Virus record (IMG/VR): IMGVR_UViG_3300026290_000001
DNA length: 64,000 bases
Source: a virus
Direction: 5' to 3' (one strand)
Shown: positions 13,105 through 64,000 of the stretch, in pieces
How the letters are laid out: the number at the start of each line of letters is the position of its first letter
Position numbering within the stretch: the first letter of the stretch is position 1
Position numbers and translations under genes: made by a program
The notes under the pieces: model-generated
Database searches by the model: none
The model's input: only the letters and a program-made list of their open reading frames with translations
What the model was told of the DNA's origin: nothing

Positions 13105-14397
13105 TCAGTCATGAGATGAATTGGCTCTGTTCTGTTCATATATAATCCATGATTTTCTTGCATTAATTCTTTGCATGTTAGATATTTTCGGTGTCTTCAT
13201 ACCTCTGGGTGCATTACTAAAATCTATTTTTTCACCATCTATACCCATAAGAATGGCATAACCCGTAGACATTCTACCTTTAATAAAATATTCATTACCT
13301 ATATACCTTACTTTATCAAACTTCCTAAATCCTTCTATTTTACCTGTAGGTATCTTCTGATGACTTCTTACTCCTTTTGCCTGTTGGTAATCGCCTTTAG
13401 GGATACACTTTTTTAATACAGCTTTTTCAGTTTTAAAGCTTACATCAATTAACCCTATATCTTCAATATTATTTAAACAGGCAATAGCTACAGCATCGTA
13501 GTAATGCTCTTTTGGTAATCCCATTAGCTGTCTATGTTCTTTGGTAATAAATCCAAAGGTTTCTTTTGCATTTGGTAGCTGTCTTAATAATTGTTGTCTT
13601 ATACTATTCATCTGTGTTGTGTGTTTTAATTGTCCTTTAATTTTACCATTCTTCTTTAATTTAATTCCTCCTTTGTGCAAACTATTATGACAAGTTTTAC
13701 AAAGTGTAATTAAATTTTCTGCATCATCTGAGCCACCATTTTTTCTAAAAACTATATGATGTACCTCTAATCTGCTGTCTTTACTTTTTCCTTTGCAATA
13801 CTGGCAAATATATTTATCTCTACTTAATACATAAGCTTTAGTATTAGCAAATCCATAATTAGTTCCTTTTTGATAAAGCCATTTATTACTTAATACTGCT
13901 GGATTTTTTAAAGCATGTGGGTCAAATGTTGCTGTTTCTATTATTATATTTGTAATGGGCATTATTGATTTTGCAAAATCAATTTCTTTTAAGTGTGAAT
14001 TAATTTTACTTGTCATTGTAGGAGAAAATCTATCTTTTTTAATGCTGTTTTTCCTATTATTAAATCTAGGTTCCCTATATCTAGTTTTCCTATTCCTTCT
14101 AGTTCTCCTATATTTAGCTCTTTTGTCCATTTTGTCAGATATATCATTTCTAATTTCTACTTCTGATATATAATACACTTCATTTTCGTCATTTGCTACT
14201 GCACTTCCTATTTTACTACTACCAGTATCAATTCCTAAAGTTAAATCTTGTGTATAGTCTGTAGCATGATATAGTAATTTAATTGTAAATGGAGTTCTTC
14301 TTATGCATTTTGCTTTACCATCTTTTAACAATAATCTTGCTATTGCTGGTTTACAAGGCATTAAAGGACTCCCATCTTCATTAATTACATAAACCAT
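13105..14397 (-). CDS. iscB: IscB, OMEGA-family RNA-guided nuclease (PLMP domain, split RuvC, HNH)
   Basis: N-terminus VYVINEDGSPLMPCKPAIARLLLKDGKAKCIRRTPFTIKL (PLMP domain); RuvC-I LGIDTGSSKIGSAV; Arg-rich bridge helix RRTRRNRKTRYREPRFNNRK; RuvC-II ETATFD; HNH CQYCKGKS...LEVHHIVFRKNGGSDDAENLITLCKTCHNSLH; RuvC-III HYYDAVAIA; domain order exactly as in described IscB proteins. Confidence 0.85.
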   Translation of the reverse strand: MVYVINEDGSPLMPCKPAIARLLLKDGKAKCIRRTPFTIKLLYHATDYTQDLTLGIDTGSSKIGSAVANDENEVYYISEVEIRNDISDKMDKRAKYRRTRRNRKTRYREPRFNNRKNSIKKDRFSPTMTSKINSHLKEIDFAKSIMPITNIIIETATFDPHALKNPAVLSNKWLYQKGTNYGFANTKAYVLSRDKYICQYCKGKSKDSRLEVHHIVFRKNGGSDDAENLITLCKTCHNSLHKGGIKLKKNGKIKGQLKHTTQMNSIRQQLLRQLPNAKETFGFITKEHRQLMGLPKEHYYDAVAIACLNNIEDIGLIDVSFKTEKAVLKKCIPKGDYQQAKGVRSHQKIPTGKIEGFRKFDKVRYIGNEYFIKGRMSTGYAILMGIDGEKIDFSNAPRGMKTPKISNMQRINARKSWIIYEQNRANSSHD

Positions 14398-14681
14398 AAA
14401 ATCAAATCCTTTCGGATAAATACTCTGCTTAAAAGCAGGTTATGCGTATCTATATACTATTACCATATATAGAATTCGTCCTCATCTCGACAATGATAAA
14501 ATAGCTTATATGTATATCACACCGAGCCTTACCCTCCAACTCTACTTAGTGATATACGATAGAGCAATGGTCTGATGCGTCAACCAAAGGTATCATAACT
14601 ATTCTATCGTAGTATAAATTTCTCTATACTAAGTCTGGTGAACTTAGACTTTAGAAGCCTCCGACTTTAGTCGGGGGTAGT
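14398..14681 (-). ncRNA. candidate omega RNA of IscB (structured 5' region; guide expected at the high-coordinate end)
   Basis: 284-bp non-coding gap directly upstream of iscB with higher GC than surroundings and several stems readable by eye (CCTCCGACT/AGTCGGGGG, TACGATAGAG/CTATTCTATCGTA, AGTCT..AGACT, CTGCTT..AAGCAG). Confidence 0.45.
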
Positions 14682-14927
14682 TCACTCTATTTCAGGATTG
14701 ATAGATAAATCATCTTTGCTTGTACTATTTACATTAGATAAATTATCTTCATTGGACAAATCATCATTAATAATTTGACTTAATTCGTCTATTTTAGAAC
14801 TTAATTTGATAATCTCTATCTGATACATATTATTTTGTAAACATAAAGTGACTACATCTAAGGGCAAATTACTATTGTTTATTAACTCTGCCAGTTTAAT
14901 ATTAAAATCACTTATAATAAAAATCAC
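14682..14927 (-). CDS. hypothetical protein
   Basis: 81-aa ORF upstream of IscB locus. Confidence 0.25.
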   Translation of the reverse strand: MIFIISDFNIKLAELINNSNLPLDVVTLCLQNNMYQIEIIKLSSKIDELSQIINDDLSNEDNLSNVNSTSKDDLSINPEIE

Positions 14928-47255: not shown

Positions 47256-47331
47256 TGGAGCCGAGTATAGGATTTGAACCCATAATCTGTTGTTTACAAG
47301 ACAACTGCCTTATCAATTTGGCTAACCCGGC
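47256..47331 (-). tRNA. tRNA-Thr (anticodon UGU), CCA encoded
   Basis: Minus-strand 76 nt: acceptor GCCGGGU/ACUCGGC, anticodon stem GUUGU/ACAAC with loop CUUGUAA, T-arm AUGGG-UUCAAAU-CCUAU, discriminator U + CCA. Confidence 0.75.
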
Positions 47332-55454: not shown

Positions 55455-56204
55455 TTAAAATTCCACTAATCTATTTTTCGCTATTTCACAATATTTTTCT
55501 TCTAATTCAATTCCAATACATTTACGTTTAAGATTTCGTGCCGCCAATAAAGTTGTTCCTGAACCACAGGTAAAATCTAAAATAAGATCGTTTTCATTTG
55601 TGTATGTATTAATTAAATATTCCATTAATTCTAATGGTTTTTGTGTAGGATGAAATAAATTATTATTTGGATTTGCAAAATTTAATATATTTTTAGGATA
55701 ACCTTTAGCATTACTATTTCCAAAATGCTTTTCTTTCCCAAAAGTATATTCTCCATCCACTTTATTTTCTCTACTTGGTCTATTATTATTAAATTCTCCA
55801 TAAATTAACCCTTGCGGATTATAAATGCATTGATTTTTATAAAAAACTAAAACATCTTCTATTGCTCTCATTGGTTGTTTTTTAGCATTTAAATGACCAC
55901 TTGGTTTAGTTTTTATCCATTTCCAATCATATTTATATTCTTTAATATTACTAATTCTTAAAAAACTACTAAAAGGTTCTCCTCCAAACAATAATGTAGG
56001 TGTTGTATTTTTTGTTAATTTATGTAATCTATCCCACATGTCATTAAATTTGATAATTTCATCCCATTTACATTTAGTAGTACCGTATGGTGGGTCAGTA
56101 ATTATTGCATCAAATTTAATACCTTTCTCAATAATCTTATCCATTACCTCTAAACAATCACCTTGAAATAATCTTATGTATTCGTCTTTATAGTATAATT
56201 TCAA
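55455..56204 (-). CDS. DNA methyltransferase (amino-MTase), paralog of 56249-57034
   Basis: IITDPPYGTT motif and LDFTCGSGTTLLAA SAM-binding motif; N- and C-termini near-identical to neighbour, central region differs. Confidence 0.8.
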   Translation of the reverse strand: MKLYYKDEYIRLFQGDCLEVMDKIIEKGIKFDAIITDPPYGTTKCKWDEIIKFNDMWDRLHKLTKNTTPTLLFGGEPFSSFLRISNIKEYKYDWKWIKTKPSGHLNAKKQPMRAIEDVLVFYKNQCIYNPQGLIYGEFNNNRPSRENKVDGEYTFGKEKHFGNSNAKGYPKNILNFANPNNNLFHPTQKPLELMEYLINTYTNENDLILDFTCGSGTTLLAARNLKRKCIGIELEEKYCEIAKNRLVEF

Positions 56205-56248: not shown

Positions 56249-57034
56249 TTAAAATTCCACTAATCTATTTTTCGCTATTTCACAATATTTTTCTTCTAAT
56301 TCAATTCCAATACATTTACGTTTAAGATTTCTTGCCGCTAACAATGTTGTCCCTGAACCACAGGTAAAATCTAAAATAAGTTCGTTTTCTTTTGTGTATG
56401 TATTAATAAGGTATTCTAATAGTTCAATTGGTTTTTGAGTCGGATGTAATTTTTTCCCTGACATACTAGCGTTGCTTAAAGTATAAATACTTGTTGGATG
56501 TCTATCTTTATATTCTTTATGCCCCAAGTCTTTTATGGTATGTCCTTCTCTTAATGTGCTATTTCTTGAACCATAAAATGTTTTATTAACTTTTTTTATA
56601 TCATCTCGTTTTGTTTTTTGAGGATAATAATTCATTTCATTACCTTTTGAGAAAACTGCTTTTGCTTTACTAAAAATTAAAATATTTTCATGTACTCTAC
56701 CTACTTGAAAATTCATCATTTGAAAATTAGATGGTTTTACTTTATCCCAAATAATTTCATATCTAAATAGTTGAGGATTACTCATAATTAAAGCACTCGT
56801 AAAAGGTTGAGAACCATTCAATACTATTGCACCTTTATCTTTGATTAATTGAGTAATTTTATCCCACATCTTATCAAAAGGAATTATCGTGTCCCATTTA
56901 CATGCTGTAGTACCATAAGGTGGATCAGTTATTATCGCATCAAATTCAATACCTTTCTCAATCAATTTATCCATCACTTCTAAACAGTCACCTTGAAACA
57001 ATCTTATGTATTCATCTTTATAGTATAATTTCAT
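56249..57034 (-). CDS. DNA methyltransferase (amino-MTase), paralog of 55455-56204
   Basis: IITDPPYGTT and LDFTCGSGTTLLAA motifs; upstream/downstream non-coding sequence also duplicated. Confidence 0.8.
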   Translation of the reverse strand: MKLYYKDEYIRLFQGDCLEVMDKLIEKGIEFDAIITDPPYGTTACKWDTIIPFDKMWDKITQLIKDKGAIVLNGSQPFTSALIMSNPQLFRYEIIWDKVKPSNFQMMNFQVGRVHENILIFSKAKAVFSKGNEMNYYPQKTKRDDIKKVNKTFYGSRNSTLREGHTIKDLGHKEYKDRHPTSIYTLSNASMSGKKLHPTQKPIELLEYLINTYTKENELILDFTCGSGTTLLAARNLKRKCIGIELEEKYCEIAKNRLVEF

Positions 57035-58602: not shown

Positions 58603-59526
58603 CTAAGGAATAATACCGTATTGTTCATATAAATGTTTTTGCGGAGCAAATTCACCGAAATATTTCTTTTCTGCTTCTAGTCTTGCTTTGATTGCATCAT
58701 CTTTATTTATAAATGAACCCAAATATATTTGTTGTTTATTACATGTTATTTTAGCAACCCATTTATTATTTTGATTAAAAGAAACACCAATAAGTCCAGA
58801 AAATTTAGATACTTCTTTATTCATTCCATTTTGACTTTTAGTTGCAATTCTTAAAAATTCTTTTCTATTATCATTTACATTATGGAATATATGATCAACT
58901 TCTACTTTTTTATCATCTAAACAATTCATTACAAATCTATGCATAAAGACAATACGAGTTTCGTTTAAGTGTGTTATTAAATATCCATCTTTATCAGTAA
59001 ACCAATAATAATTTTTTATTTTATGATAATCTTCTAAATCAAAATAAAATTCTTCTCCTTTTAAAGTGTATCCAATTCCGTATTCTCCAGATAAATCATA
59101 TGTATTATATTTTTTATTAGTTTTACTTACTATTTCTTTTTGTAAACAACCGCAAGATTTAGTTTTATTTGCTCTTAATCTATTACCTGAAACTAATATT
59201 AAACTATTTTCTCCTCCGCAATCACATTGACACCACCATTGAATTTCTTTAAAACCACTTGGAGAAATATAATCTTCTCCTCGTTTTAAAACTGTCAATC
59301 TTTCAAATTTTTGTCCTGTTAAATCTTGAAAATATTTAGATGTACAACCACATGATTGAGTATTGCCTGATTTTAAATTACCTCCTTTAACAATAATTTC
59401 TTTTCCATCACAATCACATTTACATAACCATTGAGTAGAACCTTGTACATTGTTTTCTGCTCTTTCTATCACTGTTAATTTACCAAACTTTTGTCCAATT
59501 AAATTTTTAACTTTACCTTTAGGCAA
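58603..59526 (-). CDS. HNH homing endonuclease with AP2-like DNA-binding domain
   Basis: Two N-terminal repeats GQKF(G/E)(K/R)LTV...W.C.CDC.G; HNH core HRFVMN...VDHI.HN..DNR; C-terminal SGLIGVSFNQNNKWVAKI...IYLGSF...AIKARLEAE resembles AP2 domain. Confidence 0.65.
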   Translation of the reverse strand: MPKGKVKNLIGQKFGKLTVIERAENNVQGSTQWLCKCDCDGKEIIVKGGNLKSGNTQSCGCTSKYFQDLTGQKFERLTVLKRGEDYISPSGFKEIQWWCQCDCGGENSLILVSGNRLRANKTKSCGCLQKEIVSKTNKKYNTYDLSGEYGIGYTLKGEEFYFDLEDYHKIKNYYWFTDKDGYLITHLNETRIVFMHRFVMNCLDDKKVEVDHIFHNVNDNRKEFLRIATKSQNGMNKEVSKFSGLIGVSFNQNNKWVAKITCNKQQIYLGSFINKDDAIKARLEAEKKYFGEFAPQKHLYEQYGIIP

Positions 59527-59713: not shown

Positions 59714-60592
59714 TTAAATAGCACAATTATTCATACTTTTTCTTATATCATCTTGTGAAGGATGTAAATATATTTGAGTAGTAGAAAGCGAACCATGACC
59801 AAGTATCTGCTGAAGAGCCTTGAGATTCCCACCATTTTCTAAAAAATTAGTAGCAAATACATGTCTTAATGAATGACAAGTTATTACATTACTATGTTTG
59901 TTAAATATTCTTTCAACACTACTACTTTCTAATTTTTCACTTTTGTTGCTTAAAAATAAATATTTACTTCCTAATACATTATAAGCATACTTATAATTCT
60001 TTCTATCATCAATCGCTTTTTTAATAATCTCAATAGCAGTTTCATTCAATGGTATTATTCTTTGCTTACTTCCCTTACCAATAACTTTAAGATTCTTTCT
60101 TTTAAAATTAATATCATCCAACTCAATATTTAATGCTTCAGATATTCTTAAGCCAGTATTCAGAAGTAAAGCAACTATATAATAATTCCTATCACATTCA
60201 TTCTTCCTTATTCTTTCCATAAATTTTATTGCTTCAGATTTAGTAATACTAGTTGGAGATGTTAATTGTTTTTGTATGCGTATATAATCCTGTCCCAATA
60301 TCACCAAACTATCCTGATACCCCATCTTAACCAAAAATTCATTATAACTTTTCAAAGCACTTAACCTTCTATTTATTGTCTTAGCATCAACATTTCTTTC
60401 TTTAAGTAAATATTCCTTATACTCCGCAATCTGATCTCTACTAATAATCTGGGGTTCAATTCCAAAATACTCAAAAAACAAACCAATATCATGAGAATAA
60501 GATTTTATTGTATTGATAGATTTACCTTGTTCTACTAGGTGGTTGATGTATTCGGTTAAATAATTTTCATTTGCAACGAGATTCATATTCAT
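59714..60592 (-). CDS. tyrosine recombinase (XerD-like)
   Basis: Motifs NTGLRISEALNI, HSLRHVFATNFLENGG, LGHGSLSTTQIYLH. Confidence 0.8.
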   Translation of the reverse strand: MNMNLVANENYLTEYINHLVEQGKSINTIKSYSHDIGLFFEYFGIEPQIISRDQIAEYKEYLLKERNVDAKTINRRLSALKSYNEFLVKMGYQDSLVILGQDYIRIQKQLTSPTSITKSEAIKFMERIRKNECDRNYYIVALLLNTGLRISEALNIELDDINFKRKNLKVIGKGSKQRIIPLNETAIEIIKKAIDDRKNYKYAYNVLGSKYLFLSNKSEKLESSSVERIFNKHSNVITCHSLRHVFATNFLENGGNLKALQQILGHGSLSTTQIYLHPSQDDIRKSMNNCAI

Positions 60593-60826
60593 AATTTATC
60601 TCTCCTTTAGATTAATAATATAATTTAATATAAGTATATGCTTTGGTTAAATTAATCATACAATATAATTTAAATTATTGCAAGTAAAATATAAAAATAA
60701 ATATAAATATTTTATTTCAATGAATAATATCCTTTCTATTGGTTAATTTATATGAAACAAGTTTCTTATGTAGTGGGTTGGGATAAACCCAATCGCAAGG
60801 AGAACACAGGTTTTATAATATTCATA

Positions 60827-61060
60827 TTAACAGATTTTGCTAGGTTCAATAGTTTGACGGTAATCAGAGAGATAAACGACTTTAGGATGGTTAATACGTT
60901 GCCATTTAAGTTGTTCTTCTCTGATCCGTCTTTTTTCTTCTATTTTAATGTTCTTGTTGTATTGCTTTATTTCTTTTCTAAATCTCTTATCTCTTTCAGC
61001 AACAATTTGAAAGTAAATCCAGGTAATTATTAGAATACCTATTCCAATTAAAATTTTCAT
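60827..61060 (-). CDS. small membrane protein (uncertain)
   Basis: 77 aa, N-terminal TM helix then basic region. Confidence 0.2.
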   Translation of the reverse strand: MKILIGIGILIITWIYFQIVAERDKRFRKEIKQYNKNIKIEEKRRIREEQLKWQRINHPKVVYLSDYRQTIEPSKIC

Positions 61061-61444
61061 TTACATCTTCCTTTCTTAAATTTTGCTCCAATCATTATCA
61101 TAATGTTTATATCCTTGTGGTTTATTTAGTAATGCTTCTTTTATAGTTGCATGTTCAGAGATAATTTTTCACTTTCAGTTTCCTATACATAACCGTTTTC
61201 ATTGATGATAAAGTTATACCAAGGTACTAATAATGCTATTGGCATTGCAACTCTCCTTAATATCATTTCCATTCATTAACATCTCCTTTATGATTTGATC
61301 TATATGGATTGTTTGAATTTCTGGAGTAAGGATTTGTGTGGGTGAACCACCATTGTTGAATGTAGAAAGAAAAATAGGATATCGTTTCTTGTGGATTAAT
61401 ACCTATCCAGTCTAGAAAAAACATTGTAGGTAAACCTCCTTTCT

Positions 61445-62160
61445 ATGTGGAAATGTGTGTAGAAATATATATGGAATTTATATAGTTAAATGTGTTATTT
61501 GATTGATTAATAATATGATTTATTTTTAGATTTTAGAAATGGTAAGTTGTGGATTGTAGGATGGGTTATAAATATGTTTTTAAAGCAAATTTAATTATTT
61601 AGTTTATTTGTAGTCGGGAAGGTATGTGGAACAGGAAGGAATAATTGAGCAGAAAGTAGAATGAATATTGATATATTGGGAGTTTAGATAGTTTTTAGGC
61701 ATGAATTTTGTGTTAATTTTGATTATTGGAAGATTGATACAGAAGGTTGATTTTTTGTTGTCGGGGAAATTGAGATGAAGTGGTGAATTTTTAGGGTGGT
61801 TTTTTATTGAGTTTATAAAGGAATTTGAGTGTAGAAATGGTGATTAGGTGGGAGGTAAGGGGTAAGGGTAGGGAGAGAGGAAATAGGGTGGTTTTAGAGT
61901 GGATTTTGTTGGAGTTTTGTTATAAAGATTGTGGGATTTTTGTTTTTGGGAGTGGGAGGATATTGGGAGAATGTAGATGGGATGGATGTAGGTGAGATGG
62001 ATGGTTTGACGAGTGAGAGACGATGTGAATTTTGGTGGTTTTAGGGATATTTTATGTTGTCGGTATGGAATTTTTGTTTATGTGTGGAATAGATGTGATA
62101 GCGAACATATGTTCGATTAAAGTGACCGGAAATTTGTAAACTGGGGGTGGTATGGGTAGG
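61445..62160. other. C-depleted (G/T/A-only on plus strand) non-coding region with G-tract repeats; canonical G-quadruplex motif at 61850-61873
   Basis: Very few cytosines across about 700 nt on plus strand; motif GGG-aggtaa-GGGG-taa-GGG-ta-GGG; no ORFs. Confidence 0.5.
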
Positions 62161-62282
62161 TATATATAATACTGATATAATAATAGCACATGACAGGCTA
62201 TAACTCCCGGTATAATGGCATTAGCAAGCTATCTGATAATGCAATATAATGTATGATTATATTGTATTGGGTGAATTGGATC

Positions 62283-62450
62283 GGGGAAATAGCAGGGAAA
62301 ATAAGTGGGAAATAACCTGGGAAGCTGGTAGGGAAATGACTGATCAGGAAGCATCAAAAAAACTGGTAGTATCGGTAATGAAAATAGTAAAGATAATAAG
62401 TTGTCGTGGAAATCGTTTTTAATAACAGAACAGATGTTCGGGAAATGATT
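62283..62450. repeat. iteron-like GGGAAAT/GGAAAT repeats
   Basis: At least six spaced copies (cGGGGAAATa, aGGGAAAAta, tGGGAAATa, aGGGAAATg, tGGAAATc, cGGGAAATg) upstream of a promoter-like element. Confidence 0.35.
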
Positions 62451-62485
62451 ATAAATTAATAAAATAAAAATAATTATAAAAATAC

Positions 62486-62520
62486 TTGCATCTATGTTGG
62501 CAATATGATAGTATAGTATA
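62486..62520 (+). promoter_or_regulatory. sigma70-like promoter candidate for plus-strand small-gene cluster
   Basis: TTGCAT followed at about 17 nt by TAGTAT/TATAGT, then RBS AAGGAGGTG and ATG at 62601. Confidence 0.35.
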
Positions 62521-62600
62521 TAGATATGATCTTTGATAATAGCATAGTAACCTTAGTTTGCCTTACGCAAGCTATCTTTACAAGAAAGGAGGTGGCACGA

Positions 62601-62726
62601 ATGATAATGACTGAAAAAATGAACATAGAAATTGAAAACATTGAAAACATTTTAGCTGATAATGAACTATCCGATACAGAAAAAATCAAGCTTATTGAAC
62701 AGACTATAAAAGCAATAAGAAGGTAA
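62601..62726 (+). CDS. 41-aa small protein, copy A (start refined to ATG with RBS)
   Basis: RBS AAGGAGGTG 8 nt upstream; MIMTEKMNIEIENIENILADNELSDTEKIKLIEQTIKAIRR; near-identical copy at 62980-63105. Confidence 0.4.
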   Translation: MIMTEKMNIEIENIENILADNELSDTEKIKLIEQTIKAIRR

Positions 62727-62760
62727 TACCTTAAATAAAAATAGGAAGGAGGTGAAAAAA

Positions 62761-62940
62761 ATGAAATTATCAAAAATTGATAACAACGGCATAACCTTAT
62801 ATCTAACAATCATAAACGGCATTAACATGCTAACCGGAAACCCTGCTAAAGCTCTAAAATTTGAAACAGCTAAAGCAGCAAACAATTATAAAAACAATCT
62901 CACTCATCCAAACTTGCAGGGATTACAAGTAAGTCTATAA
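62761..62940 (+). CDS. hypothetical small protein
   Basis: RBS GGAAGGAGGTG upstream of ATG at 62761; lies between the duplicated small ORFs. Confidence 0.35.
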   Translation: MKLSKIDNNGITLYLTIINGINMLTGNPAKALKFETAKAANNYKNNLTHPNLQGLQVSL

Positions 62941-62979
62941 AACCGAGATTTTATCTTAACAGGAAAAGAGGTGAAAAAA

Positions 62980-63105
62980 ATGATAATGACTGAAAAAATG
63001 AACATAGAAATTGAAAACATTGAAAACATTTTAGCTGATAATGAATTAACAGATAGTGAAAAAATCCAGTATATTGAACAGACTATAAAAGCAATAAGGA
63101 GGTAA
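62980..63105 (+). CDS. 41-aa small protein, copy B
   Basis: RBS AAAGAGGTG; MIMTEKMNIEIENIENILADNELTDSEKIQYIEQTIKAIRR. Confidence 0.4.
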   Translation: MIMTEKMNIEIENIENILADNELTDSEKIQYIEQTIKAIRR

Positions 63106-63199
63106 TACCTTTTACCCGATAGCACTCACACCATAACAGAGTGCTATTCGTAAAGGGTATTAAAAACCCTAAAAATAAAATTAGAAGGGAATTGATAAA

Positions 63200-63670
63200 A
63201 TGGCAAAGCAAATAACGAGTGAATTAGAGGGTAAATGGTATAAAATTCCAGATTATAAAATAATGTTAGTGCGAGATAGCAATATAACAGCCGACAAAAA
63301 AAGAATATCTCATCCTAATGATGTTGTCAATGTATTCCAAACATATTTAGAAGGTTTAGACAGAGAACATTTTTGCATTGCTATGCTAGATAGAAAAAAT
63401 AATATTTTAGGTATTAATACGGTATCAATAGGTAGTATAAGTGCAAGTATAGTTCACCCGCGCGAAGTTTTTAAACCAGCTATTATAATTGGTGCATCAA
63501 GTATTATCCTTTGTCATAATCACCCAAGTGGTGATACAATGCCAAGCAATGAAGATATAACAATAACAAGAAAATTAGTAGAAGGCGGAAAACTACTAAA
63601 TATTGAAATACTTGATCATGTTATTATTGGCGATAATTATTACAGTATGAAGGAAAAAGGAATTATTTAA
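63200..63670 (+). CDS. RadC-like JAB/MPN domain protein
   Basis: JAMM motif region ...ILCHNHPSGDTMPSNEDI... and upstream conserved E (HPREVFK), size 156 aa typical of RadC-like. Confidence 0.75.
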   Translation: MAKQITSELEGKWYKIPDYKIMLVRDSNITADKKRISHPNDVVNVFQTYLEGLDREHFCIAMLDRKNNILGINTVSIGSISASIVHPREVFKPAIIIGASSIILCHNHPSGDTMPSNEDITITRKLVEGGKLLNIEILDHVIIGDNYYSMKEKGII

Positions 63671-63778
63671 TAACAATAAAATACTAGCAGGAAATAAAAT
63701 CCTGCTACATGGTATAACAGCAATGCTATATCATGTAAGAGGATTTTAAAAAAAACATTAAGGAGGTGAATAATAACA

Positions 63779-63979
63779 ATGAGTAGAAAAACCTATATTG
63801 ATAATAACGGATTTTTGCGGTATGAAGATACATGTAAGATAGTACCAAACCAACCAGACAACAAACTAGCATTAAACGAAATGTATAATATTTTTGGTAA
63901 CAGCAGTAAGAACCAACCAGAATTATCCATAGACGAAATGAATTATCTTGAAGGTAGATGTATTAAAGACTTTAATTAA
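63779..63979 (+). CDS. hypothetical small protein
   Basis: 66-aa ORF with RBS AAGGAGGTG upstream. Confidence 0.3.
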   Translation: MSRKTYIDNNGFLRYEDTCKIVPNQPDNKLALNEMYNIFGNSSKNQPELSIDEMNYLEGRCIKDFN

Positions 63980-64000
63980 TACCTTGTTAAAGTGCATTAG

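Follow-up and report, generated by a model that had tools for sequence, protein, structure and literature searches.

The window analysed here, the whole 64,000-nucleotide (nt) stretch of IMG/VR virus record IMGVR_UViG_3300026290_000001, ends in an array of small genes in which two near-identical genes for a 41-residue protein, p41 (copies p41A and p41B), bracket a gene for a 59-residue protein, p59, and are followed by a gene for a RadC-like JAB protein (RadC) and by a further small open reading frame (ORF), p66 (Table 1). A preliminary description of this region had pointed to the two bracketing ORFs and to a strong ribosome-binding site (RBS) for each, and both observations held: the peptides are identical at 37 of 41 residues (tblastn E=1.7e-21 and 3.4e-12), and a Shine-Dalgarno (SD) sequence stands 6 nt upstream of each ATG. 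The copies lie within a direct repeat of 160 nt (62573-62732 versus 62952-63111, 90% identical, spacing 379 nt), far beyond chance, which takes in the RBS and runs on for 6-9 nt past the stop codon; no third copy of p41 was found by tblastn within the 64-kb window.

The window is a segment of a tailed phage of ~135-138 kb that is known only from metagenomes. We assigned it to a phage of this size from contigs that carry the exact RadC or p41B proteins: the RadC protein was found on 18 metagenomic contigs, nine of them of 50-200 kb, the two with listed lengths having 134,847 and 135,317 bp, and the p41B protein is carried by a contig of 138,134 bp. No similar phage was found among 50,697 deposited phage genomes (INPHARED) or in the GTDB genomes, and a search of IMG/VR for relatives returned distant RadC matches only. 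On the minus strand, from ~2.5 to 60.6 kb, lie terminase, portal, tape-measure and tail genes, two DNA methylases, an HNH endonuclease and an Xer-like tyrosine recombinase, followed at 60.6-62.6 kb by a 2-kb non-coding, nearly ORF-free region; the plus-strand small-gene array then starts with p41A, divergent from the structural, replication and recombinase genes. Related loci are referred to below by L numbers, and the sequence of L003 continues beyond the window end.

Table 1. Positions of the small-gene array features and of the divergent recombinase in the window.
Feature	Position	Strand	Remarks
Xer-like tyrosine recombinase	59714..60592	-	Diverges from the small-gene array; scores under all curated NCBIfam cut-offs
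ATAACAG heptamers	62422, 63133, 63284, 63714	+	
Promoter-like site upstream of p41A	62486..62514	+	TTGCAT, 17-nt spacer, TAGTAT, TG at -15/-14; inferred from reading the sequence
SD of p41A	62586..62594	+	AAGGAGGTG; 6 nt before ATG; conservation across relatives begins abruptly here
p41A	62601..62726	+	A-type copy, 41 residues; two-helix protein gene (predicted); L040A orthologue 97.6% identical in protein
Remnant after p41A	62724..62732	+	TAATACCTT; stop codon plus remnant 5' arm of a putatively deleted hairpin, which is intact here in L040
p59	62761..62940	+	59 residues from ATG; small beta3-alpha-beta protein gene (predicted), between the p41 copies; SD GGAAGGAGGTG
Leader of p41B	62940..62979	+	AACCGAGATTTTATCTTAACAGGAAAAGAGGTG..., including the SD; same leader before B-type p41 in L040 and L039
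SD of p41B	62965..62973	+	AAAGAGGTG; 6 nt upstream of start
p41B	62980..63105	+	B-type copy, 41 residues; 3' half B-type, 5' half putatively converted to A-type
Two-tier hairpin after p41B	63103..63162	+	60 nt; lower stem TAATACCTT.../...AGGGTATTA, upper stem ATAGCACTC/GAGTGCTAT, ATAACAG loop
RadC	63200..63670	+	JAB-only RadC-like protein, 156 residues, intact HxHx7SxxD; Pfam PF04002 E=2.5e-44
Hairpin after RadC	63695..63748	+	AAAATCCTGC...GAGGATTTT, ATAACAG in loop; 3' end is the right boundary of the RadC block versus L010
p66	63779..63979	+	Small ORF; directly after p41 in most relatives
5' half of next hairpin	63977..64000	+	TAATACCTTGTTAAAGTGCATTAG..., cut by the window end; covariance model match 63975-64000

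p41 is a protein-coding gene under purifying selection

In a search of 5.8 billion proteins, p41 formed a family of 26 clusters with 73-100% identity, all of 41-42 residues except for one 66-residue call from an upstream start, and in a remote-homology profile search of 1.84 billion representatives the only hits were nine members of this family, of which two are frameshifted variants. p41 is thus far restricted to the present group of metagenomic phages. When 17 p41 loci were aligned at the nucleotide level, similarity started abruptly at the SD and stopped at the stop codon, the flanks being unrelated, and variable sites were distributed 18/10/30 over the three codon positions. In diverged pairs, the proportion of synonymous differences (pS) was 0.43-1.0, near saturation, versus 0.03-0.20 for non-synonymous differences (pN), with a ratio of non-synonymous to synonymous rates (dN/dS) of about 0.03-0.3. 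p41 is a real protein-coding gene under purifying selection, and the conservation of the small ORFs in related genomes, on which the preliminary description had made its proposal depend, was found for p41.

Two further properties of these loci bear on a different reading, in which the repeated unit would be a cis-acting RNA or DNA element, or a leader peptide (upstream ORF or attenuator) acting via a stop-codon hairpin, with the peptide itself functionless. The first 21 nt of p41 (ATGATAATGACTGAAAAAATG) are nearly invariant, and in the window, L040, L039 and L029 the stop codon of p41 is the first triplet of the hairpin that follows it; a terminating ribosome would therefore melt the lower stem. 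We consider this reading unlikely, given that substitutions pile up at third codon positions with pS far above pN, that the amino-acid sequence yields a confident predicted fold, and that no hairpin follows p41 in window copy A, L010, L021 or L025, whereas hairpins also stand after unrelated genes.

The AlphaFold2 model of p41 (predicted local distance difference test score, pLDDT, 94.7) has helices at residues 3-19 and 25-40 that form a two-helix hairpin, the first helix acidic and the second basic, and p41 is thus predicted to be a 41-residue helix-loop-helix protein. A Pfam search at E values up to 10 gave coiled-coil noise only (ABC_tran_CTD, 0.012, in six of the 26 members), a PDB profile search returned no hit under E=0.66 and Foldseek none under 2.1 (PDB) or 0.17 (BFVD), and searches of PHROGs and PADLOC returned no match. 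No antitoxin-like, DNA-binding or defence family was detected for p41 in these family and profile searches. A Spo0E-like identity, prompted by a sequence pattern, found no support; an arbitrium-type secreted peptide appears unlikely, as no hydrophobic signal segment could be read in the sequence; and a 42-47-residue ORF that overlaps the p41 start in L030-L035 was ruled out as a p41 paralogue (hhalign probability 2%).

The intervening gene, p59, forms ten clusters with 78-100% identity, and its AlphaFold2 model is equally confident (pLDDT 94.7); it had no Pfam, PHROG, PADLOC or PDB fold match, so that here a confident model stands without a structural neighbour. The products of p59 (62761-62800) and p66 (63779-63825) both begin with K/T-x-IDNNG-x-x-x-Y, and each gene directly follows p41 in different relatives. 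Homology of the two, as a duplicated two-gene module sharing IDNNG..Y, was rejected (BLASTP E=0.015 over nine residues; profile-profile probability 1.8%).

The two p41 genes are old paralogues

The relative L040 has the order p41-hairpin-p59-p41-hairpin, and its upstream non-coding DNA is 93-100% identical to that of the window, yet its two p41 copies are only 78% identical in protein. Because this diverged relative holds the same p41-p59-p41 triple, the duplication is old. Both copies are present in the window and L040, only the A type in L029, only the B type in L039 and neither in L036. The two halves of the gene differ in what they share. In the 3' half (57 nt), window copy B equals L040 copy B (57/57) and window copy A matches L040 copy A at 56/57 positions, the A and B types differing from each other by 12-14%. 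In the 5' half (69 nt), by contrast, window copy B matches window copy A at 68/69 positions (99%) and L040 copy B at only 53/69 (77%).

The simplest reading of this pattern is gene conversion: recombination between the copies in the window lineage would have converted the 5' half of copy B to A sequence, and the near-identity of the two window copies would be due to this event. p41A and p41B are old paralogues, of an A and a B type, that flank p59, and not a fresh duplication. The window and L040 differ also after copy A, where the window lacks exactly 72 nt (L040 1723-1794) directly after TAATACCTT; the hairpin at this place was probably deleted in the window lineage, with TAATACCTT alone remaining. 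In L025 the B-type leader stands before p41 but behind an unrelated gene. In two p41 variants, P0029 (53 residues) and P0030 (81 residues), the sequence past residue 32-33 is unrelated to p41; these variants represent frameshifts or joints of recombination within p41, near the putative conversion breakpoint of the window.

That some contigs break inside the repeat (L005, L008 and L009 start within a p41 copy), and that the two copies share 99% identity in their 5' halves, is what might be expected of an assembly or chimera artefact or of a very recent neutral tandem duplication. Either origin is extremely improbable, since the p41-p59-p41 arrangement was recovered in independent JGI, metaSPAdes and MEGAHIT assemblies of different samples, and since L040 has the same structure with diverged copies and the 3' halves are orthologous across lineages. 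Both copies have been kept intact in two diverged lineages, the window and L040, and the duplication may have a dosage or two-paralogue role; nothing was found in support of the bistable regulatory module that had been proposed for it.

RadC moves independently of p41

The preliminary description had called the gene downstream of p41B a RadC/JAB gene, and profile and structure comparisons agreed. The protein scores 150.5 bits against PF04002 (cut-off 22.1) and 136.1 bits against TIGR00608, just above the cut-off of 133.85, and matches PDB 2QLC at E=3.4e-29 with the HNHPSGD...S..D and HPRE motifs aligned; the metal-binding (JAMM) motif HxHx7SxxD and its upstream Glu are present, HNHPSGDTMPSNED and HPRE aligning to 2QLC. 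It is not of the full-length bacterial type: NF000642 matches at positions 86-211 only (147.3 bits versus a cut-off of 180), and the N-terminal helix-hairpin-helix part of the full-length bacterial protein is missing.

Gene order around p41 differs from one relative to the next. The window reads p41A-p59-p41B-RadC-p66-p121. L010 and L015 read p41-p66-p121; L011, L013, L014 and L016 read p41-p66-RadC; L019 reads RadC-c16-c6-p41; L021 reads c7-p41-c16-c6; and L022 and L023 read p41-c19. L029 has p41-p59-p121, L039 has p59-p41-p121, and L036 has p59 and no p41; in L030-L035 the other small ORF overlaps the p41 start and unrelated genes follow. The immediate 3' neighbour of p41 is accordingly p66, p59, RadC or an unrelated ORF, and RadC stands after p41, after p66, upstream of p41 or nowhere. 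The array is a cassette-like mosaic, in which ORFs, each with its own RBS, are gained, lost and reordered between relatives, and ordinary phage mosaicism accounts for this core finding.

The movement of RadC can be followed at its borders. Compared with L010, the window has an extra block at 63108-63747, which consists of hairpin, RadC and hairpin, and homology at 98% identity resumes at 63748; relative to L011, the homology of RadC starts a few bases past a hairpin in both genomes. A 3'-terminal remnant of RadC (...EILDHVIIGDDDFCSLRARGLM*) lies directly upstream of p41 at L010 3006-3070, and likewise in L011, L013, L014, L016 and L019; where such loci hold an intact RadC elsewhere, the remnant is the scar of an earlier rearrangement.

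These gene orders also bear on the proposal that p41 is an antitoxin-like or regulatory partner of RadC or p59, in a toxin-antitoxin or bistable module whose dosage the duplication would set. In its favour, p41 is small, helical and charged and lies just ahead of other small genes; p41 and p59 neighbour each other, in either order, in four arrangements (the window, L040, L029 and L039); RadC is within about 1 kb of p41 in several relatives; and both p41 copies are kept in two lineages. However, p41 occurs without RadC in L010, L015, L029 and L039, and without p59 in L010-L025 and L030-L035, p59 occurs without p41 in L036, and the position of RadC relative to p41 changes. Antitoxin, DNA-binding and defence families were unmatched, p41 and p59 had no match in Pfam, PHROGs, PADLOC or PDB, and RadC is not established as a toxin, a nucleic-acid-processing role having been proposed for RadC-like JAB proteins (Iyer et al. 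2017, PMC5512222). We regard such a partnership as improbable. Because a conserved two-gene adjacency is absent across the relatives, a toxin-antitoxin or regulatory pair of p41 and RadC is not supported, and RadC appears from these comparisons to be an independently moving cassette and not a functional partner of p41.

A covarying family of stem-loops at cassette junctions

The stop codon of p41B is the first triplet of a 60-nt hairpin that folds at -28.3 kcal/mol, versus -6.4 +/- 2.2 kcal/mol in shuffled sequences (z = -10.2, 0/200). The preliminary description had noted a stable hairpin here; the stem that it gave, ATAGCACTC...GAGTGCTAT, exists but makes up no more than the upper tier of the longer element. 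A fold scan of the next 6 kb, in L003, revealed similar two-tier hairpins after p41B, RadC, p66, p121, p63, p55 and p117, and the element that the window end cuts is complete at L003 6776-6840. In the consensus, the lower stem (T)TAATACCTT(G).../...(AG)AGGGTATTAA is joined through a small internal loop to an upper stem of 10-16 bp, whose loop contains ATAACAG; the upper-stem sequence is unrelated from one copy to the next, and one lower-stem pair is a conserved U.G. The elements next to p41 have 20-23 pairs in two tiers with an internal loop and stand between cistrons. Four of seven intact elements, and the remnant after copy A, begin with the stop codon of the gene before them, as do those that follow p41 in L040, L039 and L029. 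Nearly all members fold at -21 to -31 kcal/mol, and the short element at L029 5787 folds at -12.6 kcal/mol.

A covariance model built from three members recovered further members in L022, L023, L024, L029 and L033. Its only matches in the window were at 63101-63164, 63693-63750 and 63975-64000, and in the relatives, too, it matched in the small-gene region only. In the resulting alignment pairing extends to 93.8% of the cells, and in 20 of 23 pairs both partners have changed, a level that none of 500 shuffles reached, versus 32-50% of cells paired in slid controls. Where the window is compared with its relatives, blocks of homology end at the edges of hairpins or genes (63107, 63171 and 63748). 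A covarying two-tier stem-loop family with conserved base sequences thus coincides with several cassette junctions.

A scan for intrinsic terminators found one site, on the minus strand only; no U tract occurs in the elements, and the sequence after them is A-rich. A consensus scan for sigma-70 promoters found 27 sites versus 22.4 +/- 4.7 expected, with no hit falling consistently in the elements, and a sigma-70 promoter within the hairpins was rejected, as the spacing from ATAACA to TATAGA/TATTAA is inconsistent and the scan showed no excess. Rfam gave no match below an E value of 0.1 in 60600-64000. The promoter-like site upstream of p41A was missed by the consensus scan; it sits in a block that is 92.6% identical in L040. 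In relatives, RadC and other genes are followed by GC-rich versions of the hairpin (CCC(T/G)CTGCTCG...CCGGGAGGG, -28 to -37 kcal/mol), at L013 1390-1600, L016 5925-6035, and L019 615-710 and 940-1180; in L013 several strong structures occur in a run, with a total of -82 kcal/mol over 210 nt.

Given an Xer-like recombinase on the other side of the non-coding region, we also weighed whether the array is an integron-like site-specific platform with the hairpins as attC-like folded sites for this enzyme. The layout is suggestive, in that a tyrosine recombinase diverges from a small-ORF array, and behind many of these ORFs stands an imperfect palindrome whose ends are conserved and whose centre varies. 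The cassettes come in different orders in different relatives, and some of their junctions fall where an element has its 3' edge. However, the integron-integrase model TIGR02249 gives 111.5 bits versus a cut-off of 265 and matches in two stretches, and the best models for the recombinase are XerA and XerD, likewise under cut-off, so that it looks like a generic Xer protein. The elements lack the RYYYAAC/GTTRRRY core, their ends being TAATACCTT.../...AGGGTATTA; the conserved U.G wobble and the strand-specific ATAACAG point to sense RNA; and the truncated element after p41A, together with element-free junctions, favours homologous or illegitimate recombination over a site-specific exchange. We therefore hold an integron-like platform to be very unlikely.

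ATAACAG is enriched on one strand of the array

The loop heptamer ATAACAG occurs 24 times in L003, always on the plus strand and inside the small-gene array (L003 5223-11056, corresponding to window 62422 to beyond the window end), versus 2.8 expected, and none of 200 shuffles reached this count. Its density is 3.3 per kb versus 0.17 per kb on the sense strand of the minus-strand late and structural genes (19-fold), and the strand bias is repeated in the relatives. Fourteen of the 24 are intergenic, most of them in hairpin loops or a few bases from an SD or start codon; the other ten lie within genes, nine of them in frame as ATA-ACA-G. ATAACAG could be a recognition motif for a regulator acting at the RNA level, or a polar DNA signal.

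Other features of the window

The region upstream of the array has an unusual composition. The plus strand of the non-coding stretch 61444-62200, which separates the recombinase side from the small-gene array, has hardly any C (21 in 751 nt; GC skew as high as +0.95) and contains a 247-nt run without C at 61763-62009; L040 has a matching C-free run of 245 nt, and the runs in L029 are shorter. Upstream of the p41A promoter-like site, at 62284-62323 (+), stand GGGAAAT-type repeats with a period of ~12 nt (3.4 copies) and more GGGAAAT copies nearby, which are iteron- or operator-like.

Within the minus-strand gene block, an IscB RNA-guided endonuclease at 13105-14397 (-) (NF040563, E=4e-105, 351 bits versus a cut-off of 175) adjoins a HEARO/omega RNA at 14475-14685 (-) (Rfam RF02033, 121.7 bits). 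A tRNA-Thr gene (anticodon TGT) lies at 47256-47331 (-). Tandem N6/N4 DNA methyltransferase genes at 55455-56204 (-) and 56249-57034 (-) (PF01555, E=4.6e-33 and 1.7e-37) are followed by a gene for a phrog_20872 protein and then by the HNH endonuclease at 58603-59526.

Discussion

Taken as a whole, the locus is probably best explained by old p41 paralogues that reside in a mosaic small-gene array with hairpins at its junctions, RadC being independent of them. Several points weigh against this explanation. The relatives are short metagenomic contigs of one phage group, so that their arrangements are not independent samples. The conversion rests on two lineages, and replacement of the 5' half in L040 copy B would give the same pattern. 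The covariation figures come from an alignment fitted by the model and including reverse-strand rows, and three of 15 elements fold better on the opposite strand, the sense preference being not universal. Junctions without an element exist (L010 p41/p66), which means that elements are not obligatory cassette borders; and as the hairpins have no U tract or recognisable sigma-70 promoter, their RNA role is argued by analogy. Finally, no homology or fold match constrains the role of p41, and its early timing is drawn solely from position and gene size.

Within the explanation that we favour, the most likely role of the stem-loops would be that of hairpins between the cistrons of early mRNA, of the type of ribonuclease III (RNase III) sites, at which the message would be processed, stabilised or attenuated. 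As short repeated homologies, they may also serve as joints for cassette shuffling, by analogy with the stem-loops of T4-type phages discussed below. Our best guess for p41 is that it would be an early-expressed small binding protein, acting in host take-over or counter-defence and possibly as a homo-oligomer or A/B hetero-oligomer, for which it is a candidate only.

A more far-reaching idea, to which we give little credence, is that the array is a phage-borne cassette platform outside the IntI/attC type, with the hairpins as folded recombination sites, or, in a variant, that ATAACAG and the hairpin loops mark an early-mRNA regulon. If the platform existed, the Xer-like recombinase or another phage factor would capture, duplicate and reorder small genes, and the p41 duplication would be one visible product; in the regulon variant, ATAACAG and the loops would be recognised by a phage protein.

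Proteins that head phage early operons are a main source of host take-over and counter-defence factors and are mostly unannotated. Among these p41 is a clean candidate, being coding, having a confident predicted fold and two diverged paralogues that are kept, and being limited to the ~135 kb phage group. The locus also provides a worked example, beyond T4-like phages, of cassette reordering, probable gene conversion between paralogues and probable hairpin loss, and it has yielded two directly testable leads, a covarying family of intergenic stem-loops that is new and a polar heptamer with strong enrichment. The toxin-antitoxin reading of RadC-like genes beside small ORFs is attractive, was unsupported and is removed here.

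Comparison with known systems

Large Firmicute phages carry small ORFan host take-over proteins at the start of their early operons, which we use as a lead only. p41 is similar in that it is small, heads a block of small genes and has homologues within a narrow phage group only, but it has no sequence or fold relation to the characterised members, and it constitutes an unannotated ORFan family. The window RadC shares the domain and the intact metal-binding motif of RadC-like JAB proteins, solo forms of which are common in phages and conjugative elements (PMC5512222), and, unlike full-length bacterial RadC, it lacks the N-terminal part.

With integron cassettes the array has in common short ORFs in series, imperfect palindromes with conserved ends, a divergent tyrosine recombinase and a varying cassette order. 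It differs in that the recombinase is not IntI and attC cores are missing, and in that some ORFs lack an element and one of the elements is cut short.

RNase III sites occur in the polycistronic mRNA of the T7 early region. Such sites are also described for early mRNA of Bacillus phage SP82, for which we draw on the passage of PMC4838370 that cites Panganiban and Whiteley 1983. Like the sites of T7 and SP82, the elements are intercistronic hairpins of ~20 bp or more with a small internal loop and no U tract, repeated between early genes, although the heptamer conserved in the loop is not known as a determinant for RNase III, and the likeness is structural only.

The closest parallel is with the promoter-early stem-loops (PeSLs) of T4-type phages, which serve as recombination joints (Arbiol et al. 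2010, PMC2839356; Comeau et al. 2014, PMC4122927). In both systems, short intergenic stem-loop motifs are repeated in a hypervariable block of small ORFan genes, and the motif runs from at or near the upstream stop codon to the downstream SD. In PeSLs the breakpoints of insertions, deletions and replacements between close relatives fall at the motifs; here the breakpoints 63107, 63171 and 63748 and the 72-nt deletion would fit such a pattern, while some junctions lack an element. Unlike PeSLs, the window elements had no sigma-70-type promoter and have a two-tier stem, a conserved base and an ATAACAG loop instead of G/C tracts, and the window phage is not T4-like. Even with no such promoter, a different sequence logic and another type of phage, the hairpin system appears, by analogy, to resemble PeSLs in its layout and evolutionary role.

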